This document shows positions 4,927 to 44,744 of a DNA stretch of 64,000 nt, piece by piece (the stretch's first letter is position 1; each line of letters opens with the position of its first letter). A program made the position numbers and the translations under genes. The stretch spans positions 433,082-497,081 of the forward strand of contig AP024679.1 in NCBI GenBank assembly GCA_025999215.1, written 5' to 3'. The notes under the pieces were generated by a model. The model saw nothing but the letters and a program-made list of their open reading frames with translations. It searched no databases and was not told the DNA's origin. The stretch comes from Candidatus Dojkabacteria bacterium. GTDB taxonomy: Bacteria; Patescibacteriota; Dojkabacteria; J137.

Positions 4927-5463
4927 TCACCATATAAATCTATCACCTATTTTAATTCCATTCTTTTCTGTCCAAAAAGCATTTACTTCAAGTGTGTATT
5001 TTGCCGGTTTTTCTGATGAGTAAATTTCTGTAGTTTGGTTTGGCATGGTGTTAGTGTGAATTTTAACAACTTTTTTATCTGCATCTAAAAATATAATATC
5101 TAGTGGAATATAAGTATTTTTCATCCAAAAGTTTAGAGTTTGTTCTTTTTCAAACACAAAAAGCATGCCAGCATCTTCAGGTAGATAATCTCTAAACATC
5201 AAACCTCGCTGCCTTTCTGTGTTATCATCAGCTATTTCTACAAAAATTTTTTTACCGTTCGGTGCGATTATTTCAATATTTTCTGAAGGTATTGCGTTTA
5301 ATTGAATGTCTTGATTTGCTTCGTTGTTATTTAAAAAGTTTTCACCTACACCTAACGCGATTAAAACAGCAAAAAAAACAGAAATTACTGTAGCAATAGC
5401 GCTAATTAAAAGTATAATCGGAGATTTGAGGTTTTGTAAAATTTTGTTTTTAATATTATTCAT
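4927..5463 (-). CDS. DUF192-family protein with N-terminal membrane anchor
   Basis: RQRGLMFRDYLPEDAGMLFVF...FWMKNTYIPLDIIFLD is the DUF192 signature. The start overlaps the mutL stop by 1 nt (TAATG). Confidence 0.8.
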   Translation of the reverse strand: MNNIKNKILQNLKSPIILLISAIATVISVFFAVLIALGVGENFLNNNEANQDIQLNAIPSENIEIIAPNGKKIFVEIADDNTERQRGLMFRDYLPEDAGMLFVFEKEQTLNFWMKNTYIPLDIIFLDADKKVVKIHTNTMPNQTTEIYSSEKPAKYTLEVNAFWTEKNGIKIGDRFIW

Positions 5464-7301: not shown

Positions 7302-7328
7302 AAAAATTTAAAACTTTTACAAATCTCT

Positions 7329-8417: not shown

Positions 8418-8420
8418 AAT

Positions 8421-14686: not shown

Positions 14687-15963
14687 ATGGAATTTAATTT
14701 AGTTTCTGAGTATAAACCTGCTGGTGATCAACCACGAGCGATTGATACGCTTTCTAATGGTTTGCTTGCTGGGAATCAAGCACCAAACGCTTGGTTGGTG
14801 CGACCGGAACTGGTAAAACTTTTACAATGGCAAATATCATACAAAATCTTGGGAAACCTGCTTTAATTCTTTCTCACAACAAAACTTTAGCTGCTCAATT
14901 GTTTGCTGAATTTAAAAAATTTTTTCCTTACAATGCTGTTGAGTATTTTGTGAGTTACTACGATTATTATCAGCCTGAGGCTTATGTTCCCTCAAGAGAT
15001 TTGTATATTGAGAAAGATGCCGATATAAACGACACAATTGAGCGGTACAGGTCTTCAGCTAGCCAGTCGCTTTTGACAAGAAAGGATGTGATTGTAATTT
15101 CAACCGTTAGTTGTATCTATGGGCTAGGGAATCCTGCAGATTATTTAGAATTAAGTTTTGAATTTAATGTTGGGGAAAGTTATAAACGCGATAATATTTT
15201 AGCGCGACTAACAGATATGCAGTATGAAAGAAACCAACTTGATTTCATGCCTGGGAGTTTTAGAGCCATTGGTGAGATTATTGATATTTATTTAACAAAT
15301 GCAAATGATGAAGCTGTAAGGTTAGAGTTTTTTGGTGATGAATTGGAATCTATAAAGATAATTAATCCTCTAACAGGCGAGTTTGTAAAAAATTTAAATT
15401 CAGTTATTATTTTTCCTGCCAAACACTATGTAAGTCCACATCATAAACTAATGGAAACGATTGAAACAATAAGAGAAGATATGAAAAAAGAAGTTCAGCA
15501 ATTTTTGGATAAAGGAAAGGTGGTGGAAGCAACGAGACTTAAGCAAAGGGTTGAATATGATTTGGAAATGATTGCTGAAACAGGTTTTGTAAAAGGCATT
15601 GAAAATTATTCTAGATACATTGACAGAAGACCACCCGGAAGTGCGCCATCATGTTTAATTGATTATTTTCCTCATGATTACATTATGTTTATTGATGAAT
15701 CACATATAACTGTTCCGCAAATTGGAGGAATGTACAATGGCGATCGCGCACGGAAACAGAGCTTGGTAGATTATGGTTTTAGGATGAAAGCAGCGCTAGA
15801 TAATCGACCTTTGAAATTTGAAGAATTTGAACAAAAATTAAACCAAGTTATTTACACCACGGCAACGCCAAGGGATTATGAAATTCAGAAAAGCATGAAT
15901 GCAACAGAAGAAATTAGGGAAAAAAGCCCTCAAATATTCAGTGGAAAAATGTTAGAATATTAG
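14687..15963 (+). pseudogene. uvrB: UvrB N-terminal half (about 425 codons) with two single-nt frame disruptions next to the Walker A motif
   Basis: MEFNLVSEYKPAGDQPRAIDTLSNGLLAGNQ (frame a), HQTL (frame c) and VGATGTGKTFTMANII (frame b). The extra bases are about 14780 and 14793. It ends ...TATPRDYEIQKS plus a 22-aa tail and TAG. The rest of UvrB is at 63780. Confidence 0.85.
15953..15958 (+). promoter_or_regulatory. Extended -10 (TGTTAGAAT) 6 nt upstream of the DUF368 ATG
   Basis: aaaTGtTAGAATattagaATG. Confidence 0.35.
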
Positions 15964-16914: not shown

Positions 16915-18834
16915 TCACACCAAGGAAGCTTTGAGTCGCCTCAGGTTTGAGCCTATGTTTTCTTGTTTTAAAATTTTGAACTTTTTATTATTCTCTCCCA
17001 AAACTCCTGTTGTTTCAACATGCGGTCCTCCGCAAAACTCTTTTGAGAAACGCCTCATCTAAACTATTACCTATAAAATAAATGGTTACTTTGTCGGGAT
17101 ATTTTTGTCCAAACTCCATTTCTGCACCAATTTTTTGTGCTTCGCCTGAGAGGCATTTCTACTCTCTTCACTGGTAAATTTTCTGTGATCTTTTGATTGA
17201 CAATATCTTCAATTTTTTTGATTTCCTCTTCTGTAATTTTTTTTGAATAGTTAAAATCTATTCTTAATCTTTCAGAAGTTATGTTGCTACCTCTCTGGTG
17301 AATATTTTCGTCTAACACAAGCTGTAATGCTCTCAAAAGCAAGTGGTGAGCTGTGTGAAGCTTGGTTGTTTCGTGCGAGTGATCTGCCAAGCCTCCAGTA
17401 AATTTTTTTTGAGCGCCGGCACGAGATTGTTCTTTATGTTGTTCTAGCAACGTTTTAAAACCAACTATGTCTACTATAAATCCTATTTCTTTTGATAATT
17501 CTTGTGTCATTTCTACTGGAAATCCATAAGTTTCATAAAGATGGAAAGCTTCTTCACCTTTTAAGAAATTTCTATGAGGATTTTCGGATTTTTTGATATC
17601 AGTAACGATTTTGTAAAATTGCTTAATACCATTGTCTAGAGTTTTTCTAAATTTTATTTCTTCTTTATCTATTTCATCAATTATAAACATCTCCTTTTCT
17701 TTAAGATGAGGATAAGCATCTTTCATTTTTTCAATTACTAGGCTTGCCAAATCCTTGGTGAAATTTTTTTCTATTCCAAGAATTTTTGCATGTCTTATCA
17801 TCCTTCTGATTAAGCGCCTCAAAATATACCCTTGATCTTTGTTAGATGGCGCAATTCCATCGGCAAGAATAAAAGTTGATGCTCTTGCATGATCAGCTAT
17901 AATCCTGAATGCTTTCGTATATTTACTTCTGTTCTTCGTTGTGATCGTATTTGTGGCCTGATATATTTTCTATTGCGTTGATGTAGTCAATAAATAAATC
18001 AGTTTCGTAAACTGAGCGCTTGTTTTGAACTGTAGCGACAATTCTGTCTAGCCCTCCTCCATAATCAATGTTTTTTTGCTCCATAGGCTTCCATTTTCCA
18101 TCCTCAAATCTGTATTCCATAAAGACACTGTTTCCAATTTCTAAGTATCTTCCTGAATCATCATTAATGTGCAGTTTTTCTCCAGTATCATTTAATACTG
18201 TTTGCATATCATAAAAAATTTCTGAGCACGGTCCACCCAATTCTCCATTAACCTCGGGCCCTCTCTGCCACCAATTGTCTTTTTTACCATAAGGAAATAT
18301 TCTAAATTGCCAATTTTGACTTGATTCACCCTGTTGAGGAACATTTGTAATATCTTCACTAAATTTCGCTTCTATTCCATATTTTTTAAATGCCTTTATC
18401 CATGCGTCAATGGCTTCATCATCGCGAGGTATATTATCATCTCCTCCCCAGACGCTAGCAAAAATTCTTTGGGGATCAAGTCCGAACTTTTCTACATAAA
18501 GCTCCATTTTCCAAAGTATTTGTTCAGTTTTTGAAAAAGCGCCCAAAGACCAGTTACCGATCATTTCAAAAAAAGTTAAGTGATTGTAGTCGCCAACATC
18601 TTCAATATCATTTGTTCTTAGACATCTTTGTACATTACACAATCTTTTTCCCAAAGGATGAGGCTGTCCAGCTAGATATGGCACAAGTGGAAACATGCCT
18701 GAATTTACAAAAAGTAAAGTTGGATCATTATTTGGGACAAGGGATACATTCGGGATAATTTTTGCATTTCTTGGAGAACTTGTCCAAAATTTCAAAAATT
18801 CATTTCTTATTTCATCGGATGTTTTCATGAACAA
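16915..18834 (-). pseudogene. alaS: Alanyl-tRNA synthetase with three single-nt frame disruptions
   Basis: N-terminal catalytic part (FLKFWTSSPRNAKIIPNVSLVPNNDPTLLFVNSGM, FFEMIGNWSLG), middle part (AFRIIADHARASTFILADGIAPSNKDQGYILRRLIRR, HTAHHLL) and C-terminal part (GAEMEFGQKYPDKV, FSKEFCGGPHVETTG). The parts lie in successive +1 frames, with breaks near 17925, 17152 and 17050. Confidence 0.85.
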
Positions 18835-22096: not shown

Positions 22097-24664
22097 ATGA
22101 TACTACAAAAAATTTTTTTTACAATGAAATATTTAAAGTTAACAAAAAAAATATTCACTACAGTTTTGGTTTTTGGCATTTTTGGATTGGTTTTGCCTTC
22201 TATTTGGAGTGTAAATGCTATAGTAGATGTGCCTTTAGAGACTTACTCGAATACGCAGACAGAGGTAATTAAACCTACACCATCAATGAATGGTTTGTTT
22301 TGTTTTGTTCCTGCTGAAGTTAATCAAGCACTCTATGGATGTCCTATAGTTACAAGTTGTGGTTTCTTTAGTGATTTAATGTCTGTTGGTGAGACTGTTC
22401 TTTCTGGTACTACCTTTTTTAACACAGCATGTGATGCAACTAATGGAGATTCACAATTTAATCCTAATTCAGGAATTGGTTTAAATCACGTGGCATTAAA
22501 TGGTATTGATACTTTGTTAAACTTAAGACCTGTAAGTGGTGTAGATTATATTAACCAGAATGTTTATGCATTATCAAAGTTGGGTAACGTGAGCGCACAA
22601 GATGGTGGTAGGGTGCTTCCATATTATCCTGGACTTGGTTATCAGTTACAGGCACCAATGCAAGCTTTTTGGGGCTGGTCCGTTAATATAGTTTATGGTT
22701 TTTTGATAGTTTTGATAATTGTTGTAGCACTTGCAATAAGTTTCAGGCAAAGATTAGGCGGTAGCGCTGTTGTTACTTTACAAAATTCTATCCCAAATAT
22801 TGCTCTTGCTATGATTTTAGTACCACTCAGTTTTGCAATTACTGGTTTGTTTATTGATGCTATAACTGTCGGTTCGAATGTTGTTCATGGTTTTCTATTG
22901 GGACCTGGATCACCAGGTAGGGTTGTTATAGAAGGCGATGAAAACGATCGGCCCTTTAGTAGGGATCTATATCCAGATGATCCTGATTTACAGTTGTTAC
23001 AAGGAAGTATTGGAAACCCATTGGAATTATCTATTGAGGGTGGTACGGTTGGAGATGCTGCTTTTGATATTATTATTGGAGATAAAGGCACCACGAGGGA
23101 TGCAATTGATAAAGGTTTGTTAATTTTTTCTCCACTTTTTCCATTTGCAGCTATAACTATACTACTACAAGGTATATCTCAAATTCCAGTTGTTGGTGAA
23201 AGAACTACTTCTAGTATTTCTGAGTTGTTTGGTTTTGGCAGTGAGATTCCGCAGTTTGCAGCTTCGTGGTGGATAGGCCAATTTTTCACTTTATTTATGA
23301 ATATAATATTCTTTTTCACAGGTTTACGAATTTTATGGTTATTATTAAAAAAGTTTTTTGTTTTGATGATATCGCCTGTATTTTCTCCTTTTGTGTTTGC
23401 AACTATAGCAATTCCTGGAGTAGGTATGAAAAATGTTTATTCTTTTTTGAAATCACTAGGTGCTGTTTCAATATTTTATATTGTTGCTTATTCTATGATT
23501 TTGTTGGCAAATATTATTGGTAATATAAAATTTGTACAAAGCATAGAGCAACAATTTCAAGTTTCAGGTTATGTACCTCCATTACTAGGATTTAGTGGCA
23601 AATTTATTGAATTATCGGAAAAAATAATTAGTAGTGAAGGTACTGAAACTGGAGTCAATGCTTTAGTTTACTTGGTTATGTCTAGTGTTGCGGTTGTCAT
23701 CTATTTATCTATTCCAAAAACTCTAAGAGATATTGATAGAAGATTGGGAACAGATAGATCTATGTTAATGCCTATTTTGCAAGATACTATTCAGAGCGCA
23801 AGAGATTCTCTTGGAATTGGTAGAGAGTTAGGGTTATATGGTGCCAACTTAGCTGCGAGCGCCTACAATAGGTTTGCAGGTGTGGAAGCAGGGCAACCTG
23901 GAAGTGCGCAATACAGGTTTAGAAGATTTTTTTCTAACTCTTTGAATAGGTTAGATTCTCAATCAAATGATCCAAATAGGAGTTTTTTGGGTAGAGTTGC
24001 ATCTAGGTATGATAGGTTTGTAACAGGTCAAGTTGCTAGAGCTTTAGGTGTAACACCGCAAGGTTTTGATGAGCAAGGAAGGAGGTTGCCTGCTTCATTT
24101 AAGGTTCAATTTGTTCCAACTAAGTATGTAAATGAGTTTGGAATTATAACTTTTCCAAACTCATTCATTCAAGAAATATGTCAAGCAGCTACAGATGTTG
24201 GATCTAATAAATGGTCAATTGAGGGTTTTGTGATAATGAAGATAACTGCTGAAAATGCTGAGTTACCTTTTACATTTGATACAAATTCTGTTAGTATTCA
24301 AGAAGCAGTTAAAGCACCTGATGGTGCAACAGACATACCATCAGGTAAAACGGATACTCAAAGGTTGTATAAAGAGAAAGTAGATATATTTGGTGTGAGT
24401 AAAGCAACTAAAGGGGCTTTGTCCATTCAGCTGTCACCTAGATCTGCTCCTATGCCAACTGATGGTAAATCTGCAGGTATATTGTTTGATTTGGTTATAA
24501 ACGATGTAAGGAAATTGTTTGGATGGGATGGTCAAAAAATTGTAAAAGGGGACGCTATTATTTCAACTGTTTCCTCTGTCGTTATGTCGGACAAGATTTT
24601 CTTTGTTTTTAGGGATGGTGCTGCAGGACCAGTAAGGTTGCAATTGGGCGCAACACCTGATTAA
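22097..24664 (+). CDS. 855-aa polytopic membrane protein, possible VirB6/TrbL-like channel component (weak)
   Basis: Signal/TM segment, a Cys-containing ectodomain of about 180 aa, at least 6 TM helices, and an Arg-rich soluble C-terminal region of about 300 aa. The start may be the ATG at 22124 (MKYLKL). The VirB6-like idea rests on topology and context only. Confidence 0.55.
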   Translation: MILQKIFFTMKYLKLTKKIFTTVLVFGIFGLVLPSIWSVNAIVDVPLETYSNTQTEVIKPTPSMNGLFCFVPAEVNQALYGCPIVTSCGFFSDLMSVGETVLSGTTFFNTACDATNGDSQFNPNSGIGLNHVALNGIDTLLNLRPVSGVDYINQNVYALSKLGNVSAQDGGRVLPYYPGLGYQLQAPMQAFWGWSVNIVYGFLIVLIIVVALAISFRQRLGGSAVVTLQNSIPNIALAMILVPLSFAITGLFIDAITVGSNVVHGFLLGPGSPGRVVIEGDENDRPFSRDLYPDDPDLQLLQGSIGNPLELSIEGGTVGDAAFDIIIGDKGTTRDAIDKGLLIFSPLFPFAAITILLQGISQIPVVGERTTSSISELFGFGSEIPQFAASWWIGQFFTLFMNIIFFFTGLRILWLLLKKFFVLMISPVFSPFVFATIAIPGVGMKNVYSFLKSLGAVSIFYIVAYSMILLANIIGNIKFVQSIEQQFQVSGYVPPLLGFSGKFIELSEKIISSEGTETGVNALVYLVMSSVAVVIYLSIPKTLRDIDRRLGTDRSMLMPILQDTIQSARDSLGIGRELGLYGANLAASAYNRFAGVEAGQPGSAQYRFRRFFSNSLNRLDSQSNDPNRSFLGRVASRYDRFVTGQVARALGVTPQGFDEQGRRLPASFKVQFVPTKYVNEFGIITFPNSFIQEICQAATDVGSNKWSIEGFVIMKITAENAELPFTFDTNSVSIQEAVKAPDGATDIPSGKTDTQRLYKEKVDIFGVSKATKGALSIQLSPRSAPMPTDGKSAGILFDLVINDVRKLFGWDGQKIVKGDAIISTVSSVVMSDKIFFVFRDGAAGPVRLQLGATPD

Positions 24665-26593: not shown

Positions 26594-28318
26594 TTAAGTA
26601 TTTTTATTTTCAAAACTTTGAGGCTCATTGTAGGTCGGGGGCGTATAATAATTTGTAGTTATTGTAGTATCTGTAGCTGGTATTTGATATTGTTCCGTAA
26701 TTATTTCACTTTCAGTAGTTTTAATTTCTTCTTCTAATTCATCGGTGTCTCTTCTCCAAAGTGCGTACAGAAACCAAGGCACAAAAAGCAATACCAAAGA
26801 ACTAAAACAAATTAATAAAACTATAAATATTGAGTTTGGATTAATTTCTCGATTAAATAAAATTAAGCTTTCGTGTTTGTTTTGAGATTCTTCTCTCTCA
26901 AGAGGAGTTGGATCAACGCGAAACTGCCAATCAAAACTATTTGCTGCACCGCTTGTGTCACCTATTTCAACTTTTACATTGTGTAGACCTTCTTTTGCTA
27001 AATCTGTTGTAATGATACATCTAAACTCACTTTCGATCACTTCACAATTTTCCGAAATATCTTTTCCATCAAAATAAACTCTGAGGCTTTTCTCATCGAT
27101 GGATGAGTTTTGTGACGGTACTAATTTACCTTCAATTGTTTTTACCTCGGTAACAGTTGAATCTATTTCTGGTTTTACATTTAAAATCAAAGGAATGCTT
27201 GTTATTGTTTCATTTTGGTTTACCACAAACTTAGGAGAAACCTTACTTATTGCTATGCCATTATCAAACTGTACTTTAATTCGTAAGTAGTAAACTCCTT
27301 CACTCAAACTACTTACATCCCAACTAAATTTCCTTTCATTATTTTCAAGCTCAGCAATTTGAAAAAAGGTTTCTAAATTTGAACTATACTCAAGTATTTG
27401 TGATTTAGTTTGAGAATCTGGGCTTATTTCCCATACTATCTCTAGTAAATTATTTTCAATAATTTGGTCAGATTTTGGAGACAAAAATTCTAGAGAAATC
27501 TCAGCTTCTTTCATAGATTCACCATTATCTTGCTCTTCGTTTGGTTGATTGCTGTTAGAATTGTTTTGGCTTTGGTTAGATCCTAAAGATTCACTCACTT
27601 GAGTGTCTAAATTTTTTACGGTCAGTTTAAATTGTTGTTCAACTTCTCCACTTAATCCGTCATCAATTGAAATTATAACAGTGTAAGTGAGTTCACCTTG
27701 AGAAATTGTTGGCGTTTGAATTTTTAAGTTTGAACCGTTTAGTGTAACAAAGCTAGGAGCTTGCTTTATTCGAAAACTAATAGTATCACCATCAGCATCA
27801 AAACCTTCTAGTTTAAAAGTAAATTGCTCATTTTCATTCAAAATTAAATCATTCGGAAATTTTGTGAATGTTGGTAGTTCGTTTTGATTAGTGATTGTAA
27901 CAATTCTGGAGTTACAAACACTGTAGTAATTTTCGTTTTGGAGTTGTAAGCAAATTCTTAAACAATAATCTCCATCATTTAAATTGTTTGTGAGTGTTGA
28001 ATTTGTATTCCATGTTACAGTGTAGGGATCAGTTTGGCTAGATTGTCCAGTTGATGCGCTAGTTATACTTCCAAAATTTTGTGTGCAATTTTGTGAATCT
28101 AGAATTTCAGCCACAAAGGGGATGTTTTCGTTGTCATCATCATACATTATCCAAGAAACGTTTACTTCTCCTTTTAATTTTTTGTTGGGTGCAGGTTCAA
28201 TAACTTTAAAAACATCATTCACATCAGCTAGGGTGTTTGCTGTCGTATTTGTTTTAAAAAGTAAAAAAACTAGGCCAAGCGCTATAAAGCCAGTTAAAAA
28301 AATTTTGTTAAAATTCAT
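26594..28318 (-). CDS. Surface protein with Ig-like and cadherin-like (dystroglycan-type) domains and a C-terminal TM anchor
   Basis: Signal peptide. FKLEGFDADGDTISFRIKQAPSFVTLNG...YTVIISIDDGLSGEVEQQFKLTVKN is a cadherin-like/putative-Ig motif. C-terminal helix IFIVLLICFSSLVLLFVPWFLYALW. Confidence 0.65.
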   Translation of the reverse strand: MNFNKIFLTGFIALGLVFLLFKTNTTANTLADVNDVFKVIEPAPNKKLKGEVNVSWIMYDDDNENIPFVAEILDSQNCTQNFGSITSASTGQSSQTDPYTVTWNTNSTLTNNLNDGDYCLRICLQLQNENYYSVCNSRIVTITNQNELPTFTKFPNDLILNENEQFTFKLEGFDADGDTISFRIKQAPSFVTLNGSNLKIQTPTISQGELTYTVIISIDDGLSGEVEQQFKLTVKNLDTQVSESLGSNQSQNNSNSNQPNEEQDNGESMKEAEISLEFLSPKSDQIIENNLLEIVWEISPDSQTKSQILEYSSNLETFFQIAELENNERKFSWDVSSLSEGVYYLRIKVQFDNGIAISKVSPKFVVNQNETITSIPLILNVKPEIDSTVTEVKTIEGKLVPSQNSSIDEKSLRVYFDGKDISENCEVIESEFRCIITTDLAKEGLHNVKVEIGDTSGAANSFDWQFRVDPTPLEREESQNKHESLILFNREINPNSIFIVLLICFSSLVLLFVPWFLYALWRRDTDELEEEIKTTESEIITEQYQIPATDTTITTNYYTPPTYNEPQSFENKNT

Positions 28319-29886: not shown

Positions 29887-31074
29887 ATGGCTAATTCGTT
29901 ATATAAAACAACAGCAAATGCTAGAAAAATTTTGTTTGCTTTTTTAGTATTTTCTTTGCTAATTGTTGTTAATGATTTTTACCAAAGTTTGTCAAAAACT
30001 CAAACAGATTTTGGTTTGAATTCTCAAAGAAGGTTTTATATGTCTACTAAGTTTTTTGATTTTTTAGATGATATTCCACCAGTTCCTGATATTCCAGGTA
30101 TTCCTCGTGATACAAATGATTCTCTAACTTATTCTGTTGAAGGAGTTTTTTCCGAATTTCCTGATATTTCTTATGTTTATACAATTGAAGAGCCAGCTGA
30201 AAAACTTCTCACATTTCAAAATGCACAAAATATTGCAAGTGAGCTTGGATTTAACTCAGAAAATTTTTCTGAAAGTGGCCAGTCTCAGGTTGTGTGGTCT
30301 AAAGATAATGGCGCTACAACTTTAACATTCGATAGGGTTTTACAGACATGGAATATGAAAACCGATTTGACAAACAATCCTCGATTTAATCCTGTTCAAA
30401 AAATTGTACAAAATCGTTTGAATAATTTATCTCTCACTTTGCTTAGTCGTATTAGGTTAAATGGAGGGAAGGGTTTTAATAATGGTTTATCTGAAAATAT
30501 TTTTTTAAAAAGGGAGGCAAATGGTGATTTGGTTGAAGTTACAGATTCAAATCAAGCACAGCTTATATTGTCAAATGCTTATAGAATACTACCTTTGGCT
30601 GATCTGAAACCACAGAGCGAACAGCCGGAACTATTACCTGGTGAAGTAAGACCTCGACCAGTTTCGGCAAAGGTTTATACTTCTGATCCTTTTCGTGGTT
30701 CTGCAAATTTTTTAACCAAGGGAAGTGAACCTGAAGATGACATTTACGAATTTTCTTTCATTAATTGGGAGTATGGTGTTGATGTAGGAGCTTATCCAAT
30801 TATCACTCCACAAGAAGCGTGGAATAATGTTCAGCAAGGTCAGGGAAGTTTGGTGTTTATAAGGCAACAAGGAGATAGTAGAATTGGTGGAAGAGATCCT
30901 TTAAATGTGAGAAGGTATGTTTTAGAAGCAGACAAAACAGAAATAGCTTTTTATGAACCTAGTGAGTGGAATGGTTTTGTTACTCCAGTTTATATATTTA
31001 GAGGAAGAGCTGAACTAGAGAACGGAAGGCAAGCAAGTTTTATATTTTATATTGATGCTCTTAAAAGATTATGA
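29887..31074 (+). CDS. Hypothetical TM-anchored extracellular protein, first gene of a three- or four-gene plus-strand run
   Basis: N-terminal TM helix (ILFAFLVFSLLIVVN). Overlaps the next gene by 4 nt (ATGA). No family recognised. Confidence 0.55.
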   Translation: MANSLYKTTANARKILFAFLVFSLLIVVNDFYQSLSKTQTDFGLNSQRRFYMSTKFFDFLDDIPPVPDIPGIPRDTNDSLTYSVEGVFSEFPDISYVYTIEEPAEKLLTFQNAQNIASELGFNSENFSESGQSQVVWSKDNGATTLTFDRVLQTWNMKTDLTNNPRFNPVQKIVQNRLNNLSLTLLSRIRLNGGKGFNNGLSENIFLKREANGDLVEVTDSNQAQLILSNAYRILPLADLKPQSEQPELLPGEVRPRPVSAKVYTSDPFRGSANFLTKGSEPEDDIYEFSFINWEYGVDVGAYPIITPQEAWNNVQQGQGSLVFIRQQGDSRIGGRDPLNVRRYVLEADKTEIAFYEPSEWNGFVTPVYIFRGRAELENGRQASFIFYIDALKRL

Positions 31075-32270
31075 AAAAATTACTAATAAGTCTAACAGTT
31101 TTAATGATTTTTTTTCAATTTATAAATTTTAATTCATACGCGTCGGGTTCATCAGACGCTGCTTGTAGTGATCCTGAGGTTAGAATAGGTAGAATAGCAT
31201 TTTTAACTGCTCTTGCAACTGAAATAATTAATAACCCGGGTATTGTGACTTATCTTAAGGAAGCAGTAGATAACCAATATGATGGTAATAGCTCTAATGA
31301 TTATTTTACTGGGCATTCACTAGATTATCAAGGAACTTTTTGTGAGGATAATGGTAAAGTATACTTGTTATGTACAGCAATGGATGGAAAGGTTTGTGTA
31401 AATAGATATTGGCATTTGTCAAGAGAAGAAGCTGATAACTTAGCAAAATCTGAAAATGATAGTACTTACGATGATGAAAAAGGACCTAGATTTGCAAATA
31501 CTTTAATTCCTGAAGAACAATATGATAATGAACTTTATCGTTGTGGTCAATTTTTAGAAAGTGACTTAAACTATGAACAACAAGATTTAGTTTATAGTGA
31601 ATATAATTTGTTTTATGTTCTGCGCAATCTTTATTTAGATTTTTTTTCTTCAATAAGCGTCACTGATGATGATCGTGATCAAGTTGATAGAAGTATTGCA
31701 GATATTTATGACACTTATAACCCTAAAGATATTGATGATCAGTATTTTTTTTCAACGGCACCGTATTCGGATTGGTTTGATATAAATTGGAATAGGCTTT
31801 ACAGTTGTGTTAATAGTGGGGTAACACAAGGGGACTTTTTCTATATTGATCGTGAAAAAGCAGATTCGGAATATAGACTTATTAATGACAACAATAACAA
31901 TAATAATAATAGTAACATAATTAGCAGTAAATGTAATGGAATAGATTGTTGTGCAGAAAATGATCAGCAATGTAGAAGTTGTGTAGGAGCTGGAGGAGTA
32001 TGGACGGCTGTTGGGTGTATAGATCCAAGTCCGGTTGGCGTGTTAACAAGGCTTGTGCAGTTAGGATTGGGAATAATGGGAGGAGTTGCGCTGATTCAAA
32101 TAATATATGCGGGCATAATGTACCAATCAGGAAATGAAGAGAAAATAAGGAAAGCAAGAGAGCAATTATTGGCAACGCTAACAGGGCTAGCGGTATTGGT
32201 GTTTAGCGTATTGATAGTACAAATATTAGGAGTTAATTTACTTGATACAGTACCAGCTGGTTTATTGTAA
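31071..32270 (+). CDS. Ectodomain fused to a VirB2/TrbC-like (T4SS-pilin-like) two-helix C-terminal module, paralog A
   Basis: Signal peptide and an N-terminal domain of about 290 aa. The Cys-rich knot is CNGIDCCAENDQQCRSC. It is followed by VGVLTRLVQLGLGIMGGVALIQIIYAGIMYQSGNEEKIRKAREQLLATLTGLAVLVFSVLIVQILG, i.e. helix, charged loop, helix, as in TrbC/VirB2-type pilins. Confidence 0.6.
   Translation: MKKLLISLTVLMIFFQFINFNSYASGSSDAACSDPEVRIGRIAFLTALATEIINNPGIVTYLKEAVDNQYDGNSSNDYFTGHSLDYQGTFCEDNGKVYLLCTAMDGKVCVNRYWHLSREEADNLAKSENDSTYDDEKGPRFANTLIPEEQYDNELYRCGQFLESDLNYEQQDLVYSEYNLFYVLRNLYLDFFSSISVTDDDRDQVDRSIADIYDTYNPKDIDDQYFFSTAPYSDWFDINWNRLYSCVNSGVTQGDFFYIDREKADSEYRLINDNNNNNNNSNIISSKCNGIDCCAENDQQCRSCVGAGGVWTAVGCIDPSPVGVLTRLVQLGLGIMGGVALIQIIYAGIMYQSGNEEKIRKAREQLLATLTGLAVLVFSVLIVQILGVNLLDTVPAGLL
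31938..32270 (+). repeat. Shared 3' module of the paralog pair (copy A)
   Basis: Homologous to 33168-33497. Positions 31992-32110 are identical to 33219-33337 (119 bp); the remainder differs mostly at synonymous sites. Confidence 0.9.
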
Positions 32271-32282
32271 TGTTATAGTATT

Positions 32283-33497
32283 ATGTTTGTGATACAGAAA
32301 ATATTAGGTAAAATTTTTCATAATTCAATAAATACATTCATATTCGTTTTTGTAGTAACTTTCATCTTTGTGTCGGTTTTTGGTAGTAATATCTCAGCAC
32401 AAATTTCCAATACGTGTACAATTGTGAATTATATAAACGAAAATGATATTGATTTGTTTAAAGACTTTTCTGTGTGTGATGTTGTTGTTACCAATGAAGA
32501 AAATCAGCTGATAGATGTTACACTGCCCGAATGCACTACAATAAAAGATTTACAAAACAATCAGTTTTTTTATTGTCCATATAGGGGAGGTGATGCGATA
32601 AGTTTGACTGAAACAGCAAGCTCTCAAGAAATTAGAAATGACTTAGAATCCTGTAAGGAAAAATGGAGAACAGGTCTTTTAAGTTTTGACGGTTTACCAA
32701 CAATTACAAATTTTTTACAAACGGATTCAGATATAGAAGAGTTGGTAACTTTTTTTCAGACAAATTCGGTAATTGAAATAGCAAATATTTGCTCAGTTAA
32801 TTCTGAAACAATAGTTGAAGCTGAAGATTGTCCAAGAATAGAAGGTAGTTTTTTCATGAATGATTTAGTTAGCCAAAACACTGTAGAATTATCTCTTACA
32901 GATATTTGCTTAAAAAAAACAGGCGTAACTCAAATTGATATACTCTACTCTTATGATTTGTCTTTTAATGATTTTGAGAAAACTGAAAATCCTCAAGGTA
33001 TTCTTTTAGCACGTTTTACTTTAGATCCAAGTGGTAGCGGAAAAGTGTTAAATTTACCGCTTACATCTGAAATAAATATCAACAATAGCAATCATTTAAT
33101 TGTATGGGTCAAGGAGGATAAGAGTCTAAATCTAAAATACTCCAAACCGAACTCTAATAATTGTCAAGGAATAGACTGTTGTGCTCCAGGAGATTTTGAA
33201 TGTAGATGTTTACAAAGTGGAGGAGTATGGACGGCTGTTGGGTGTATAGATCCAAGTCCGGTTGGCGTGTTAACAAGGCTTGTGCAGTTAGGATTGGGAA
33301 TAATGGGAGGAGTTGCGCTGATTCAAATAATATATGCAGGTATAATGTACCAATCAGGAAATGAAGAGAAAATAAGAAAAGCAAGAGAGCAGTTGTTAGC
33401 AACACTAACAGGACTTGCGGTATTGGTATTTAGTGTATTGATAGTGCAGATACTGGGAGTTAATTTACTAGATACGATTCCAGCTGGTTTATTGTAA
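32283..33497 (+). CDS. Ectodomain fused to a VirB2/TrbC-like two-helix C-terminal module, paralog B
   Basis: The N-terminal domain is unrelated to paralog A. The last roughly 110 aa are nearly identical to paralog A (CQGIDCCAPGDFECRC...GGVWTAVGCIDPSPVGVLTRLVQ...). Confidence 0.6.
   Translation: MFVIQKILGKIFHNSINTFIFVFVVTFIFVSVFGSNISAQISNTCTIVNYINENDIDLFKDFSVCDVVVTNEENQLIDVTLPECTTIKDLQNNQFFYCPYRGGDAISLTETASSQEIRNDLESCKEKWRTGLLSFDGLPTITNFLQTDSDIEELVTFFQTNSVIEIANICSVNSETIVEAEDCPRIEGSFFMNDLVSQNTVELSLTDICLKKTGVTQIDILYSYDLSFNDFEKTENPQGILLARFTLDPSGSGKVLNLPLTSEININNSNHLIVWVKEDKSLNLKYSKPNSNNCQGIDCCAPGDFECRCLQSGGVWTAVGCIDPSPVGVLTRLVQLGLGIMGGVALIQIIYAGIMYQSGNEEKIRKAREQLLATLTGLAVLVFSVLIVQILGVNLLDTIPAGLL
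33168..33497 (+). repeat. Shared 3' module of the paralog pair (copy B)
   Basis: See copy A. Confidence 0.9.
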
Positions 33498-33498
33498 T

Positions 33499-35232
33499 AT
33501 GAAATTTATAAAATTTGCACAACTTCTACAATCGCTAGAAAAAACTAAAAGCAGGAATGATATGACTAGTCTTCTGGCTGAATTTTTAGATGGTATAACG
33601 GAACAAGAGTTTGTTGTGGTTTACCTTATTCAAGGAAGATTGAAACCTAAGTTTGTAGATTTAGAATTTAATTTATCTCAAAAATTGATTCTCAAAGCTC
33701 TAGAAAATTTAGGTGATTCTAATATGCTTTTTAAAGATTTGGGAGATTGTGGTTTGGTGGCCGAAAAGCTTTGTAGTGATGCAAGTGATGATTTAGAAAT
33801 TGTTGAGGTTTATGAAAAACTTATTGAAATTGCAAACTTGAAGGGAGCGGGATCTCAAGATTCTAAAATTGAAATGTATCTTGAATTGATTAAGAATGTA
33901 AAACCTCTGAGTGCAAAATACATTACAAGAGTAATTGTGGGTAATTTGAGATTGGGTTTGAGTGATAAAACTATTTTAGATTCAATTTCTTGGCTTAAAA
34001 AAGGTGATAAGTCATTAAGATCAATTTTAGATAGAGCTTACGGCATAAGGTCAGATATTGGAGAAATTACTAAAATTACCTTATTCAATAAAGATTTTGA
34101 AAATATTCTAAACTCAATTTCACTAAAGCCTCTAACACCTGTAGCTTCAAAACTCGTTGAAAGAGCAAAAGATACAAAAGAAGTTTGGGAGCGTATGCCA
34201 AATTGTTTTGTGCAGCCCAAATTAGACGGATTAAGAGGACAAATTCACTATGATGGGAATGAAAATGTTGAAATATTTAGTAGAAATATGGAAAGGTTAA
34301 CTTTGCAATTTCCTGAAATTGTTGAGGAAATAAAACAAAATTTTAATAATTCCTTTATCTTGGATTCTGAAATAATAGGTTGGGATGAAGAAAATAAAAC
34401 TTTTTTACCCTTTCAAGAAACAATTAAACGAAAAAGGAAATATGATATTCAAAACCACCTCAAATCGATTCCTATAAAGGCAATGTGTTTTGATGTTTTG
34501 TATTTTGATGGAACTGATCTTACCCAAAAGCCACTAAATGAAAGGATAAATATTTTGTTCAAAAATTTTGGAAGTAAGAGTAGGTTTTTGGAAATTTTAG
34601 AAACAAAGCAGATAGCATCACTTGATGAACTAACCACGTATTTTGAAGAAAAAGTGTATAGTGGTTTGGAGGGAATTATCACAAAACAATTTGATTCATT
34701 TTATGAACCAGGGACAAGAAATTTTAGCTGGATAAAACTCAAAGCAAACACTGTGTCAAGTTTAGTAGACACGATTGATGTTGTGGTTTTAGGTTATTAC
34801 TACGGAAAGGGAGCTCGAGCAAAGTTTGGTGTAGGGACCTTGTTGGCAGGAGTTTATGACCCTGATAAAAATGAATATTATTCTTTAGGGAAAGTTGGTA
34901 GTGGTTTTACTGACGAAGATTTGAAAAAAATAAAATTTGATTTATGTCAAATTCAGATTTCGGAAAAACCAGATAATTTTATAGTTGATAAAAATATATA
35001 TCCGGACGTTTGGGTTGAACCTAAAATTATAATGGAAATTGTTGCTGATGAAATTACAAGGAGTAATGTACATACAGCAGGCAAAGGTTTTCGGACAAAA
35101 GTAAAAAACGATGATTTTCAAAAAGGTCTATCAATCCGATTTCCAAGGATGAAAATTTGGAATCGCCAAGATAAAGACATTCCTACAACTGTGACTGAAC
35201 TTGTCCGAATGTACGAATTAAGAAAAGGTTAG
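33499..35232 (+). CDS. lig: ATP-dependent DNA ligase (Lig1/archaeal-type)
   Basis: Motif I KLDGLRGQIH (AMP-lysine), FILDSEIIG, EGIITK and WIKLK. A DNA-binding N-domain and an OB-fold C-domain. Starts 1 nt after the paralog B stop. Confidence 0.9.
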   Translation: MKFIKFAQLLQSLEKTKSRNDMTSLLAEFLDGITEQEFVVVYLIQGRLKPKFVDLEFNLSQKLILKALENLGDSNMLFKDLGDCGLVAEKLCSDASDDLEIVEVYEKLIEIANLKGAGSQDSKIEMYLELIKNVKPLSAKYITRVIVGNLRLGLSDKTILDSISWLKKGDKSLRSILDRAYGIRSDIGEITKITLFNKDFENILNSISLKPLTPVASKLVERAKDTKEVWERMPNCFVQPKLDGLRGQIHYDGNENVEIFSRNMERLTLQFPEIVEEIKQNFNNSFILDSEIIGWDEENKTFLPFQETIKRKRKYDIQNHLKSIPIKAMCFDVLYFDGTDLTQKPLNERINILFKNFGSKSRFLEILETKQIASLDELTTYFEEKVYSGLEGIITKQFDSFYEPGTRNFSWIKLKANTVSSLVDTIDVVVLGYYYGKGARAKFGVGTLLAGVYDPDKNEYYSLGKVGSGFTDEDLKKIKFDLCQIQISEKPDNFIVDKNIYPDVWVEPKIIMEIVADEITRSNVHTAGKGFRTKVKNDDFQKGLSIRFPRMKIWNRQDKDIPTTVTELVRMYELRKG

Positions 35233-41129: not shown

Positions 41130-44100
41130 TCAAGAACACCCGGTTGTGCTACCACAATCTTCACAAACTGAACAGCTACCGTTTTTTCTAACATTTACAC
41201 TTCCACAGGTTCCACAAATCTCTCCGGTGTATCCTTTACTTTTTGCTTCCTTTAACAAAGTATCTTCATCAAGAGTTCCATCAAAGCTTATTTGTTGTTC
41301 TAGCTTCATTTGTACAGGATCAGTAACGATTGGTTTAAAACTTTGCATATTGTCTTCATCATTTTCGTTATCAAAATTTAAAACTTCAGTATGTCCCTTT
41401 CCATTGATATGTGGAATTCTGATTCTAAAGTTACTTCCTTCTCTATAAGACTTTTCTACTAGCTCTTCGTTGTGATAGTATTTTGCAGTCTCTTTATCCA
41501 AAAACTTTAATGCTAACCATCTTGCTATATAGTCTATTAGTGATTTAGCAATAGGAATTTCTTTATTGCTGGTCATTCCACTTGGTTCAAATTTAGAGTT
41601 TGTAAACTTTTCAACCAAAACTTCTAGAGGAACTCCGTACTGCAAATTTAGTGAAAGTGATGTTGCAAAAGCATCCATTATACCTGATAAGGTGCTTCCA
41701 GCTTTGGAGATTACCAAGAATATTTCTCCTGGTGTACCATCTTCAAAAAGCCCTACAGTGATATAACCTTCAATTGCGCCTACAGTAAATTTATGAGTGA
41801 TGCTGTGTCTTTCATCAGGTAATCTTTTTCGCTTAACTGTGCTCTGCTCTTTCATTACAATGGTTTGTACAGCTTTAGAATCAACGTCTTCTGATACTAC
41901 TTCTTCATCGTTAAAGTTAAATAATTCTGCATAAGAACTTTTATCAGAGCTCGAATTTAGAGGTTGGCTTAATTTTGAACCATCTCTATACAAAGCATTC
42001 GCTTTGAGCATGAGCCTCCAACCTTCCCAGTATGCTTGCTCAACATCTTCAAGTGTTGCATCTTCTGGTAGATTAACGGTCTTACTGATAGCTCCAGATA
42101 TGAATGGTTGCGCTGCAGCCATTTGTTTCAAATGTCCAAGTGTTGCAATATATCTTTCACCTTTTGTTCCACATTTATTTGCGCAATCAAATACCTTTAG
42201 ATGCTCTGGTTTGATGTGAGGAGCTCCTTCGATTGTCATTGTTCCGCACGCGTACTCGCTTGCAGCTGATATCTCTTCATCGCTAAAACCGATGGCTTTG
42301 AGAATATCAAGATTGCTATTATTTAGTTCTTCATCACTTAAGCCTAAAACATCTTTACAGAATTCTTCACCGAGAATCCATTTGTTGAATGCATGCCTTA
42401 TTTCAAAAGCATTTTTGAGCCCTCCTTCTACAGCCATAATCTCTTTATCTGTAAAACCTTTTGACTTTAGAACTTCATGATTTATAAAAGGAGCGTTTTG
42501 AAGTGTAGCATGACCTATTATATATTTGATTATCTCATCAATTTGCTTTTTGCTGTAACCTAATTTTTGTAATGCAGGTTCTACTGATTGATTTACAATC
42601 TTGAAATATCCTCCACCTACTAATTTTTTAAATTTAACCAAAGCGAAATCTGGTTCAATTCCTGTAGTATCGCAATCCATAACCAATCCAATTGTTCCTG
42701 TAGGTGCAATTACAGAAACTTGAGCATTTCTGTATCCGTACTTTTCACCTAAATCAAGAGCAAAATCCCATGCTTTGCGAGCTTCCTCCAAAAGATATTT
42801 GGGAGCAAATTTTGGGTTAATTCCCATTGGTTTTATGGTTAATCCTTCATACTCATTTTCATTAGCGTTGTATGCTGCTCTACGATGATTTCTAATTACT
42901 CTCATCATGTGTTCTTTGTTCGCTTCAAATCTTTCAAAACTTCCTCGTACTTTTGCTAACTCTGCAGAAGTTGCGTATGATTCTCCGGTGAGTATTGCCG
43001 TAAGTGATCCGGTAATTGCAAAACCTTCTTCACTATCGTAAGGAATACCTTGTCTCATTAAAAGTGATCCAATGTTAGCATATCCGAGTCCGAGAGTTCT
43101 GTATTTGTAAGTTAGCTCCGCTATTTCTTTTCCGGGTAAATGTGACATTAAAACTGAAATTTCAAGGACAATTGTCCAAAGTCTTATTGCATGTTTGTAT
43201 GTTTCAACATCAAATTTTCCAGTTTTGTCATCATAAAATTTTACAAGATTAAGTGATGCAAGATTACAAGCAGTATTATCCAAAAACATATATTCTGAAC
43301 ACGGATTGCTCGCATTTATCTTTCCATCAGCGGGGCAGGTATGCCATTCATTGATTGTTGTGTCAAACTGTACCCCAGGATCTGCAGATTGCCATGCAGC
43401 TCTAATAATTTGTTCCCACAGATCTCTTGCTTTAACGGTTTTGTAAACTCCCCCATCTGTCCTATTTCTTAATTTCCACTCTTTGTCTTGTTGAACCGCT
43501 TCAAGGAATTCATTAGTTATTCTTACTGAATTATTAGAATTTTGACCACTTACAGTTGAGTAAGCTTCAGATCTAAAATCTGTATCGTATTTTTCAAGAG
43601 TAAACTCCTCGCTTGAGACTCCATTTTCAACTAGCATCAAAGCTTGTTTTATGAAGTTTAGTGGAACAAAATTATCGTGTGCTTCTTTAATTAATTTTTT
43701 TAATTCTTTATTAGTTTCGGGATTAATTCCTTTTTGTTCAGCTGATTGCATTATTTTCTTAAGATGAAGATAATTTACATGCGATCCACTTACTAGAGCA
43801 GCTACCTTTTGTTCTTCTACTACTTTCCAATTTATAAACTCTTCTATCTCTGGGTGATCCATGTCAACACAAACCATTTTAGCGGCTCTTCGAGTAGTAC
43901 CGCCACTTTTGATTGCTCCTGCTGCTGAGTCAAAAACCTTCAAAAAGCTCATTAGTCCTGATGAAGTTCCTCCACCACTTAACAATTCACCCTTTCCTCT
44001 AATTGGTGAAAAATTAGTTCCTGTACCAGATCCGTATTTAAATAATCTTGCTTCTTTTAACACAAGATCAAAAATTCCACCTTCATTTACTAAATCATCT

Positions 44101-44744
44101 TCAACTGATTGAATGAAACAAGCGTGAAGTTGAGAACGGGTATAAGCATCTTCTGATAATTTAGTTTCACCAGTTAGTTCATCCACATAGTAGTGACCCT
44201 GTGGAGCGCCTGTGAGACCGTATGCATAATTTAATCCTGTATTAAACCATTGAGGACTGTTGGGCGCACCAATTTGCATAGTTATCATGTATGCGAGTTC
44301 ATCTTGAAAAGCATCTGCATCTTCTTTGCTATTGAAGTATCCATACTCTTCTCCCCAGTGTCTCCAAGCACCGGCTAGCCTTGTAGCTACTTGTTTGATT
44401 GAATTTTCGCCACCCAAAATTACATTACCTTCTTTATCTTTTCTAAGTTCACCTTTAGAGTTTCTTTGAGGAACTCCCTTTTTTCTGCAATATTTTTGAG
44501 CAAGAATGTCTGTAGCCATTTGGCTCCATGAAACAGGAACCTCAACATTTTTCATTTCAAAAACTACTGATCCATCTGGATTCACAATTTTTGAAGATCT
44601 GAATTCAAACTCAATACCATCATACCAATTTTCTTTACCTTTAGTAAAAACTCTTTTAATCTTCAAACCTTTTGATCCGATGTTATCCTTTATTCTTTTT
44701 GAAACATCGGTTGGGCTGATGTTTTTTTGTGGTGAACTGTCCAT
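41130..44744 (-). CDS. nrdJ: Class II (adenosylcobalamin-dependent) ribonucleotide reductase
   Basis: 1204 aa. Contains the WSQMATDILAQKYCRK N-terminal block, SNPCSEYMFLDNTACNLASLNL (active-site Cys loop), and the C-terminal Cys cluster CGTCGS...CSVCEDCGSTTGC. Confidence 0.95.
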   Translation of the reverse strand: MDSSPQKNISPTDVSKRIKDNIGSKGLKIKRVFTKGKENWYDGIEFEFRSSKIVNPDGSVVFEMKNVEVPVSWSQMATDILAQKYCRKKGVPQRNSKGELRKDKEGNVILGGENSIKQVATRLAGAWRHWGEEYGYFNSKEDADAFQDELAYMITMQIGAPNSPQWFNTGLNYAYGLTGAPQGHYYVDELTGETKLSEDAYTRSQLHACFIQSVEDDLVNEGGIFDLVLKEARLFKYGSGTGTNFSPIRGKGELLSGGGTSSGLMSFLKVFDSAAGAIKSGGTTRRAAKMVCVDMDHPEIEEFINWKVVEEQKVAALVSGSHVNYLHLKKIMQSAEQKGINPETNKELKKLIKEAHDNFVPLNFIKQALMLVENGVSSEEFTLEKYDTDFRSEAYSTVSGQNSNNSVRITNEFLEAVQQDKEWKLRNRTDGGVYKTVKARDLWEQIIRAAWQSADPGVQFDTTINEWHTCPADGKINASNPCSEYMFLDNTACNLASLNLVKFYDDKTGKFDVETYKHAIRLWTIVLEISVLMSHLPGKEIAELTYKYRTLGLGYANIGSLLMRQGIPYDSEEGFAITGSLTAILTGESYATSAELAKVRGSFERFEANKEHMMRVIRNHRRAAYNANENEYEGLTIKPMGINPKFAPKYLLEEARKAWDFALDLGEKYGYRNAQVSVIAPTGTIGLVMDCDTTGIEPDFALVKFKKLVGGGYFKIVNQSVEPALQKLGYSKKQIDEIIKYIIGHATLQNAPFINHEVLKSKGFTDKEIMAVEGGLKNAFEIRHAFNKWILGEEFCKDVLGLSDEELNNSNLDILKAIGFSDEEISAASEYACGTMTIEGAPHIKPEHLKVFDCANKCGTKGERYIATLGHLKQMAAAQPFISGAISKTVNLPEDATLEDVEQAYWEGWRLMLKANALYRDGSKLSQPLNSSSDKSSYAELFNFNDEEVVSEDVDSKAVQTIVMKEQSTVKRKRLPDERHSITHKFTVGAIEGYITVGLFEDGTPGEIFLVISKAGSTLSGIMDAFATSLSLNLQYGVPLEVLVEKFTNSKFEPSGMTSNKEIPIAKSLIDYIARWLALKFLDKETAKYYHNEELVEKSYREGSNFRIRIPHINGKGHTEVLNFDNENDEDNMQSFKPIVTDPVQMKLEQQISFDGTLDEDTLLKEAKSKGYTGEICGTCGSVNVRKNGSCSVCEDCGSTTGCS

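Follow-up and report, generated by a model that had tools for sequence, protein, structure and literature searches.

Two adjacent genes, A and B, in a MAG of ultra-small Dojkabacteria (CPR) encode exported proteins that are best described as tandem paralogs, each joining a slowly evolving, pilin-like C-terminal module to a fast-evolving ectodomain. Part of the module appears to have undergone a recent gene conversion, and nothing points to a programmed switching mechanism. We put the probability of this reading at about 70%. The genes lie in a 64-kb stretch of DNA, hereafter the window, and the relevant features are as follows.

29887..31074, + strand: 'up395' (KatS3mg085_446), a conserved partner gene.
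31071..32270, + strand: gene A (KatS3mg085_447, 399 aa), from ORF and Pfam.
31883..31921, + strand: poly-Asn linker of A, an imperfect AAT/AAC trinucleotide run, from Tandem Repeats Finder and translation.
31932..31990, + strand: Cys-rich stretch of A (CNGIDCCAENDQQCRSCVGA), from the alignment.
31991..32110, + strand: copy 1 of a 120-nt identical tract (GGVW...IIYA), from sequence comparison.
32111..32270, + strand: 3' part of module A (end of helix 1, charged loop QSGNEEKIRKARE, helix 2, stop), from the comparison, with helices from the AF2 model.
32283..33497, + strand: gene B (KatS3mg085_448, 404 aa), from ORF and Pfam.
33162-33217, + strand: Cys-rich stretch of B, the counterpart of A 31932-31990, from the alignment.
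33218..33337, + strand: copy 2 of the 120-nt identical tract, from sequence comparison.
33338..33497, + strand: 3' part of module B, from sequence comparison.
33499..35232, + strand: ATP-dependent DNA ligase, the conserved downstream neighbour, from Pfam, synteny and the terminator scan.

The preliminary description of this DNA had recognised two tandem paralogs with a pilin-like 3' module, and both ORFs are indeed present and both match PF18895. Gene A runs from a signal-peptide-like N-terminus through a Cys-containing ectodomain of about 260 aa, a poly-Asn linker and a Cys knot to a PF18895 two-helix module. Gene B has the same architecture but an orphan ectodomain. The signal-peptide-like N-termini of both proteins were recognised by inspection, and 287-293 residues precede the Cys knot in A and B. 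The stop codon of up395 and the start codon of A overlap as ATGA, a 12-nt spacer separates the stop of A from the start of B, and the stop of B is found 1 nt before the start of the ligase gene. A, B and up395 are all unnamed by NCBIfam. The AAT/AAC run of gene A sits directly 5' of the A/B homology boundary.

The full-length proteins match Pfam PF18895 (T4SS_pilin) with 28.3 bits for A and 27.2 bits for B, a margin of just 1-2 bits over the gathering cutoff of 26.6, while the module alone reaches 31.9 bits. Among 44 related modules, 41 match the same family. The earlier expectation that the module would fit TrbC/VirB2-type profiles holds for PF18895 but not for PF04956 (TrbC/VirB2) itself, which had no match to A or B at E<=0.1 and matches 3/44 of the related modules with a best E of 0.072. 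A profile of the 44 modules compared with PDB sequences gave no meaningful match and none to solved pilins, and fold searches do not discriminate when the query is a helical hairpin. The AF2 model of the 112-aa module (pLDDT 84) consists of a short helix, a beta hairpin closed by the invariant Cys residues and two long hydrophobic helices (34-65 and 69-103) with the charged loop QSGNEEKIRKA between them. In the topology that we infer, the N-terminal domain is outside, helix 1 would run inward, the loop would be cytoplasmic and helix 2 would run outward. With its N-terminus outside, the module would hold the variable domain on the cell surface, either as a plain hairpin anchor or as a subunit able to enter a VirB2-type filament.

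The module family comprises 6,506 cluster representatives at E<=1e-3. In 150 of the 151 best representatives the module is found at the extreme C-terminus, and in 136 of the 151 closest ones more than 150 aa precede it; short members also exist, for instance P0013 with 141 aa. The large ectodomains were rightly said to differ from classical short pilins, but with 136/151 relatives built alike they are not particular to this locus. A and B would thus be tandem paralogs within a large family of Patescibacteria proteins exported by Sec, in which a fast-evolving extracellular domain is probably joined through a short disulfide-bonded stretch to the slowly evolving module. In the literature on Patescibacteria T4SS we found no description of large-ectodomain PF18895 proteins.

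The genes occupy a conserved place in the chromosome. The order solute-binding protein (SBP), 390-aa YycH/YycI-like protein, module gene and DNA ligase is kept in at least 16 related loci (L001-5, L009, L010, L012-16, L018, L020 and L033; in L011 the order is the same but for the ligase, which does not follow the module gene). A single module gene is present in 14 of the 15 loci with the up395-module-ligase order, the exception being L010, which has a tandem pair. The slot formed by the YycH/YycI-like membrane protein, the module gene and the ligase would be a housekeeping, operon-like unit that normally holds one gene and holds two in the KatS3mg085 lineage. The ligase is probably co-transcribed with up395, A and B, because the terminator scan found no terminator-like site between the four genes; the sole such site is on the + strand within the opposite-strand SBP gene. 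A promoter scan was uninformative, with 35 found and 33.7 expected in shuffled sequence.

The partner protein up395 has an N-terminal TM helix, which provides a membrane anchor, and an extracytoplasmic YycH/YycI/PepSY-like domain, according to a structure prediction built with database homologs that has the YycH/YycI fold. It has no sequence-family match to YycH/YycI, the extracytoplasmic regulators of WalK, or to the PepSY domain of YpeB, and no adjoining histidine kinase. Given the conserved adjacency and the overlapping stop and start, up395 and the module protein may be functionally linked.

BLASTP aligns A and B only over their last 115 residues (103/115 identical, E 2e-68) and finds nothing at E<1 upstream, in agreement with the claim that the N-terminal ~290 aa cannot be aligned. 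Comparison of an A-type ectodomain profile with the B ectodomain gave an hhalign probability of 1%, and no homolog of the B ectodomain besides itself was found among 5.8 billion proteins. The A ectodomain has orthologs in L001 (29% over 173 aa) and L033, with identities of 25-29%, and in the two closest relatives the ortholog of A occurs alone, without B. Identity between the window and L001 is 70-77% for housekeeping proteins, 95% for the module and 29% for the ectodomain; the last 78 aa of the module are 100% identical despite 42 synonymous codon changes. At the sequence level these comparisons point to a module that evolves very slowly and an ectodomain that evolves very fast. At least four mutually unalignable ectodomain classes are found on the conserved module in the same chromosomal slot across Dojkabacteria, and the variable ectodomain with its constant module is therefore an evolutionary pattern.

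The modules of A and B are each other's nearest relatives, and 91 of their C-terminal 92 aa are identical. It had been stated that the proteins are almost identical from the Cys knot onward. This holds from the GGVW motif to the stop, and only from there, because the Cys-rich stretches upstream are homologous yet diverged, being separated by a 1-codon indel and numerous non-synonymous changes. At the DNA level, exact identity had been claimed for 31992-32110 and 33219-33337; it extends one base further, so that 31991-32110 equals 33218-33337 over 120 nt in all. The tract encodes the disulfide-loop hairpin and most of helix 1. Downstream of it, the last 160 nt contain 18 nt differences between A and B in 17 codons, 16 of which are synonymous and one a Val/Ile change, consistent with the mainly synonymous differences described earlier. 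In this 3' part the two genes differ from L001 at 26-27 nt and from L033 at 35-38 nt.

This contrast is reflected in the dS between the two modules, which is 0.03 over codons 1-40 and 0.69 over the remaining 52. The longest run in which A equals B comprises 50 of 120 sites polymorphic among five orthologs/paralogs (site-permutation P = 2.7e-4). Both results bear out the suggestion that the mosaic points to gene conversion within the module. A short and recent gene conversion is the best reading of the 120-nt tract, and a single event of this kind would have wiped out every difference between A and B over 120 nt. In itself, the conversion footprint is ordinary concerted evolution of tandem paralogs. 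The identity of the module proteins is due mostly to very strong purifying selection rather than to conversion, as shown by a dN/dS of about 0.01 at a dS of 0.69.

A comparable pair occurs independently in L010, another Dojkabacteria genome. Here the ectodomains are 30% and the modules 95% identical, the dS of 0.65 is spread evenly, the longest exact match is 32 nt and no conversion tract is found.

The tract could also have been kept constant by a function at the nucleotide level, such as an RNA structure, an internal signal or a binding site, and its GC content of 47.5%, compared with 37% in the remaining module and 30% in the ectodomains, would fit such a role. However, 29-35 of the 120 nt are changed, mostly synonymously, in the L001, L033 and L002 orthologs, so the tract is not intrinsically invariant, and this segment also shows 12 nt differences between the two L010 paralogs. 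A functional element of this kind was rejected since the orthologs vary in the tract, and it is the least probable explanation that we considered.

Assembly or polishing could in principle have produced the tandem or the 120-nt identity, by joining strain alleles or homogenising a repeat consensus. The DNA comes from a MAG, assembly is notoriously error-prone at exact repeats that exceed the k-mer, and the exact A and B proteins were not found in public assemblies. Yet 18 differences are retained in the adjacent 160 nt, and the copies were therefore resolved as distinct; moreover, a typical read is longer than 120 nt. With its 12-nt spacer, the junction of A and B does not resemble that of up395 and A, which makes a simple join of alleles unlikely. 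The contig is 862 kb long (862,240 bp), and the tandem pair in the same slot of the independent L010 assembly also argues against an artefact, which we consider very unlikely.

A more far-reaching proposal was that the locus is a cassette-like system for display. In its strong form, antigenic variation would be programmed and the constant module would serve as a recombination handle that moves ectodomain cassettes into an expression site. The unrelated ectodomains behind a common module together with the conversion footprint, and the presence of four or more unalignable classes in the orthologous slot of different lineages, are what such a system would leave behind. But there are only two copies, each a full gene that has a start codon and a leader peptide of its own, and no third copy, module fragment or silent cassette is present within the 64-kb window. 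Searches of the window turned up no recombinase, invertase or RT, and a DGR or invertase mechanism was rejected as such genes are absent from it. Further, 14 of the 15 loci with the up395-module-ligase order have a single gene, conversion is wholly absent from the independent pair in L010, and the converted tract of A and B is in the constant and not in the variable region.

In Neisseria pilE/pilS and Borrelia vlsE, many silent partial cassettes exist and the variable region is converted. A and B resemble these systems in the non-reciprocal transfer between repeated segments of surface-protein genes, but they are two full genes with the converted tract in the constant region. The part of the cassette proposal that stands is the variable ectodomain on a constant module across lineages; programmed switching with silent cassettes is not supported and is highly improbable.

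Gene B probably arose within the KatS3mg085 lineage. It would be either a duplicate of A whose ectodomain diverged past recognition or a copy whose ectodomain was replaced. The module dS is similar in the two pairs (0.65-0.69), and the ectodomains of the L010 paralogs are still 30% identical. Since the ectodomains of A and B are not, an extra event must be assumed, namely an earlier conversion, an asymmetric acceleration or a domain replacement. In a replacement, the module copy of B would have been duplicated or integrated while the outer domain came from a non-homologous source and not from divergence of A. Possible donors are the allele of an unsampled lineage at the hypervariable slot or another gene, and the domain could have arrived by one crossover between the module and a circular fragment. 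Besides the comparison with L010, the sharp homology boundary at the Cys knot is in favour of it, as are the failure to detect a homolog of the B ectodomain and its lack of profile similarity to the A-type, P0004-type and 'typical' classes.

On the other hand, the module of B is the sister of the A module and a foreign origin of that module was rejected, and the ectodomains of B and A match in GC content (30.3% and 30.4%), not far from the 31.8% of the window. The module clock may also have been set back by earlier conversions. The A ectodomain is only 25-29% identical to its own orthologs, and it is therefore plausible that B lost its similarity to A through rapid or asymmetric divergence. 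We regard replacement as a serious but tentative option, somewhat short of an even chance.

Conjugative pilins of the VirB2/TrbC type are made as small precursors of roughly 70-130 aa with a leader and a two-helix core, and their topology is N-out/C-out. A and B share with VirB2/TrbC/TraA the leader peptide, the two hydrophobic helices, the short charged loop and, as far as inferred, the topology. They differ in being 3-4 times longer, in the conserved Cys-closed hairpin before helix 1, in having no PF04956 match and in the lack of a linked T4SS within the window. No T4SS domains were found by Pfam in the 45 larger ORFs of the window, virB4 included, or in the Pfam annotations of the called genes at five syntenic loci (L001-L003, L005 and L033). 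A pilus function is therefore unsupported by the context.

Contact with host cells is a necessity for Patescibacteria. Their epibiotic growth has been reported to require T4SS and VirB2-like pilin arrays (PMC12102498, PMC12857230), and a genomic survey detected no adhesins (PMC12102498). Such arrays, among them the Ca. Southlakia epibionticum ML1 pilin array and the TM7x 'Sec secreted array', are defined as 2-11 PF18895/PF04956 genes in tandem or one gene apart in a Patescibacteria genome (PMC12102498). Two adjacent PF18895 genes, A and B, in a Dojkabacteria MAG fall under this definition. Published arrays consist of small pilins with a mean identity of 25%, and many, though not all, are near virB4 (PMC12102498). 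A and B are similar in family, in their tandem arrangement in a CPR genome and in being about a quarter identical overall. They are unlike the arrays in their length of ~400 aa with a large N-terminal domain and in modules that are 99% identical, and unlike many of them in occupying a housekeeping slot with no virB4 or other T4SS gene in the 64-kb window.

Most pilin-like modules of Dojkabacteria follow, as a C-terminal tail, large exported domains that evolve extremely fast, and they occupy a conserved slot in the chromosome. If proteins of the A/B type are the missing host-contact proteins, the ectodomain classes are candidate determinants of host specificity and the module/partner pair is a tractable target. 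A bolder possibility, which we consider unlikely, is that the PF18895 hairpin is a true VirB2-type polymerising or machine-docking module. It would then act as a universal C-terminal adaptor in Dojkabacteria and much of the CPR, displaying fast-evolving domains for host recognition on a T4SS-related surface filament or at its base. A and B would be alternative or co-assembled 'adhesin-pilins' that set the host range. Their modules would have to stay identical within the genome because both fit the same assembly partner, possibly the YycH/YycI-like neighbour, and conversion would help to keep them matched.

Tandem VirB2 paralogs in Bartonella and Anaplasma represent pilin amplification and variation (PMC12102498). 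The parallels with A and B are the duplicated pilin-type genes, the host-dependent bacterium and the proposed diversification of surface interactions. However, in Bartonella and Anaplasma the pilin itself varies, whereas in A and B the pilin-like part is constant and the appended domain varies.

Two adjoining genes on the same strand, here called A and B, share a pilin-like 3' end, an observation of the preliminary description that the ORFs, BLASTP and a repeat finder all bear out. By exact protein they are KatS3mg085_447 and KatS3mg085_448, on an 862-kb contig of a Candidatus Dojkabacteria MAG.

Genes around A and B in their local order, and the tract shared by the two.
First in the order, minus strand, solute-binding protein
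29887-31074, plus strand, unclassified 395-aa protein (up395), its stop overlapping the start of A
31071-32270, plus strand, gene A, ORF of 399 aa
31991-32110 = 33218-33337, plus strand, exactly identical tract of 120 nt
32283-33497, plus strand, gene B, ORF of 404 aa, adjoining A
Beginning 1 nt past the stop of B, plus strand, ATP-dependent DNA ligase
After the ligase, minus strand, methyltransferase

BLASTP aligns the last 115 residues alone (103/115 identical), with no match at E<1 upstream of them, and a profile of A-type ectodomains (from the N-terminal ~290 aa) obtains an hhalign probability of 1% against that of B, so the N-terminal regions are indeed unalignable. Between the DNA of A and B there is a 295-nt direct repeat with 92% identity. 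The identical tract first read as 31992-32110 = 33219-33337 is one base longer, 120 nt and not 119. Of the 17 codons that are changed on its 3' side, 16 are synonymous and one is a Val/Ile exchange, in agreement with the mainly synonymous divergence described there. On its 5' side a Cys-rich stretch is homologous but diverged (A CNGIDCCAENDQQCRSCVGA, B CQGIDCCAPGDFECR-CLQS), and further upstream A and B have no similarity. The near identity claimed from the Cys knot onward therefore holds from the GGVW motif, not in the Cys-rich stretch itself. Directly 5' of the homology boundary, an imperfect AAT/AAC trinucleotide run (31883-31921) forms the poly-Asn linker of A, a possible site of slippage or length variation.

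The proposed gene conversion within the shared module is well supported. By the Nei-Gojobori method, A and B have a dS of 0.03 in module codons 1-40 and of 0.69 in the last 52, where dN/dS is ~0.01. A Sawyer-type test took the 120 positions that vary among A, B and three orthologs; A and B agree there over up to 50 consecutive positions, a run length that 0.027% of 200,000 site permutations reached. The 120-nt tract is not intrinsically invariant DNA, because its orthologs in three related loci differ from A at 29 (L001), 35 (L033) and 34 (L002) nt, mostly synonymously; these 29-35 differences per 120 nt also make a functional element at the nucleotide level unlikely. The best explanation is a recent conversion of a short tract, or a recombination with the same homogenising effect. 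The tract has a GC content of 47.5%, versus 37% in the rest of the module and 30% in the ectodomains (window, 31.8%), and its third-position GC is 0.33-0.35 versus 0.20-0.23 in orthologs, which would be compatible with GC-biased conversion.

At least 16 further loci of Dojkabacteria share the gene order (L001-L005, L009-L016, L018, L020, L033), except that the module gene of L011 is not followed by the ligase. Each has one module gene between the counterpart of the 395-aa gene (the 390-aa gene) and the ligase, except L010. The two closest relatives, L001 (housekeeping proteins 70-77% identical to the window) and L033 (390-aa protein 64% identical), also carry a single one. Their ectodomains are recognisable as orthologs of that of A, though very diverged: 25-28% identity in a three-way alignment, and 29% over 173 aa for L001 versus A. 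The ectodomain of B has no homolog beside itself in a search of 5.8 billion proteins. An ectodomain of a third class occurs in L002, and one of a fourth, "typical" class of 450-550 aa in most other genomes; in profile comparisons among the four classes the leader peptide aligns and nothing else. Over its last 78 residues the L001 module equals that of A, even though 42 codons of the module differ synonymously. Given this identity and the 25-29% between ectodomains, few sequences of these genomes evolve as slowly as the module or as fast as the ectodomain.

Outside the converted tract, the 3' part of the module has 18 nt differences between A and B, versus 26-27 from either to L001 and 35-38 to L033. 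These distances place the two modules as sisters inside the KatS3mg085 lineage and reject an origin from one native and one foreign module copy. Ectodomain GC is 30.4% in A and 30.3% in B. L010 (Dojkabacteria BIN12, JAUQWV010000006.1) holds an independent tandem pair in the same chromosomal slot (3232-4734 and 4774-6279, 500 and 501 aa), with ectodomains 30% and modules 95% identical; the module dS of 0.65 is evenly spread and the longest exact DNA match is 32 nt. In the Dojkabacteria genome JAUZRK01 two unlinked copies lie on two contigs (L017, 4852-6279; L019, 5974-6279 / 6359-7534), with modules 97% identical in protein and 79% in DNA. One copy, a gene of 475 aa, lacks a 390-aa partner; the other is a short (~100 aa) ORF upstream of a partner-gene paralog. 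The L010 and JAUZRK01 pairs show that duplication at this locus recurs and that module identity between paralogs is kept mainly by purifying selection, on top of which the 120-nt tract would be an added, recent conversion event. Module dS is similar in the A/B and L010 pairs, yet the L010 ectodomains can be aligned and those of A and B cannot. An earlier conversion may have reset the module clock of A and B, the B ectodomain may have accelerated after duplication, or it may have been replaced by an unrelated sequence, the last being conceivable, if somewhat doubtful.

The VirB2/TrbC-like assignment of the module holds for Pfam PF18895 (T4SS_pilin; A 28.3 and B 27.2 bits, cutoff 26.6; module alone 31.9), which 41 of 44 related modules also match, while PF04956 (TrbC/VirB2) matches 3/44, weakly. 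Modelled with AF2 (44 homologs, pLDDT 84), the 112 C-terminal residues resolve the supposed Cys knot and helical hairpin into a short helix, a beta hairpin with invariant cysteines at its ends and a pair of long helices (34-65 and 69-103) joined by a charged loop, QSGNEEKIRKA. Since the N-termini of A and B are signal-peptide-like by inspection, the ectodomain would lie outside, helix 1 run inward, the loop be cytoplasmic and helix 2 run outward. The module profile matches no PDB sequence and fold searches return generic helical hairpins and nothing else; the link to VirB2-type pilins thus comes from the Pfam family and the overall architecture of a hairpin, without an independent structural match.

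A HMMER scan of the 117-aa module against 1.84 billion cluster representatives gives 6,506 relatives at E<=1e-3 and 1,452 at E<=1e-10. Among the 151 best of the 6,506, the module ends at most 15 residues from the C-terminus in 150, and 7 look like short pilins. Because 136 of these 151 have >150 aa before the module (117 have >250 aa; median 383), a large ectodomain is the rule in this subfamily and no peculiarity of the A/B locus. Two relatives, P0117 (501 aa) and P0126 (552 aa), carry six tandem PF18895-like two-helix modules in one polypeptide behind one leader peptide, and resemble a fused "poly-pilin" or a membrane protein of 12 helices made up of pilin units.

A cassette-like system, as first proposed, is unsupported as the mechanism, because both genes are complete, conversion affects the constant rather than the variable part, single-copy loci prevail among relatives, and no recombination machinery was found (no T4SS, recombinase or reverse-transcriptase domain in 45 larger window ORFs scanned against Pfam). 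The 64-kb window holds no further module copies or silent cassettes. What stands is a pattern of evolution: in a slot conserved across Dojkabacteria, and duplicated here, hypervariable exported domains are joined to a pilin-like membrane module that stays constant. A and B are akin to known PF18895 and VirB2-like proteins of Patescibacteria. The latter are small pilins of divergent sequence whose genes form arrays of 2-11, in many cases close to virB4; in Ca. Southlakia epibionticum they are essential, and adhesins are stated as not detected in Patescibacteria (PMC12102498, PMC12857230). The literature searched contained no description of the long form, a PF18895 module with a large ectodomain. 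That A and B are adhesin-pilin fusions presenting host-recognition domains through a VirB2-type assembly module seems unlikely.

The window is ordinary chromosomal DNA (ClpP, MutL, MurB, MurA-like, P-type ATPase, RNR, MurC-like, TGT, iPGM and others), and a scan found no terminator-like site between the four plus-strand genes from up395 to the ligase. The 395-aa partner matches nothing in Pfam, NCBIfam or PDB sequences; its confident model (pLDDT 83.6, pTM 0.78) starts with a membrane helix at the N-terminus, and alpha/beta domains come after it. Since the partner gene strictly adjoins the module gene, with overlapping stop and start, the two may form a functional pair, e.g. an extracytoplasmic chaperone or regulator and the module protein. 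In L005 a HEPN/nucleotidyltransferase pair (toxin-antitoxin-like, 8022-8719) lies between the solute-binding protein and partner genes.

Further large proteins near the locus (26594-28318, minus strand, and 22097-24664), with weak or no family matches (Big_7 Ig-like, weak M36-peptidase C-terminal region, GbpA-like), are probably also surface proteins; related loci have counterparts of 570-940 aa in that position. Elsewhere in the window, two consecutive minus-strand ORFs (17067-17822 and 17923-18834) each encode a part of alanyl-tRNA synthetase (PF01411; profile 1-267 and 302-450); a frameshift, a true gene split or an error in sequencing could account for this. A UvrB-like ORF with a TTG start (14791-15963; UvrB_inter and partial helicase motifs) looks N-terminally truncated. 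In the 1,204-aa class II ribonucleotide reductase (41130-44744, minus strand) the barrel domain is matched in two stretches, which may reflect an inserted element such as an intein.
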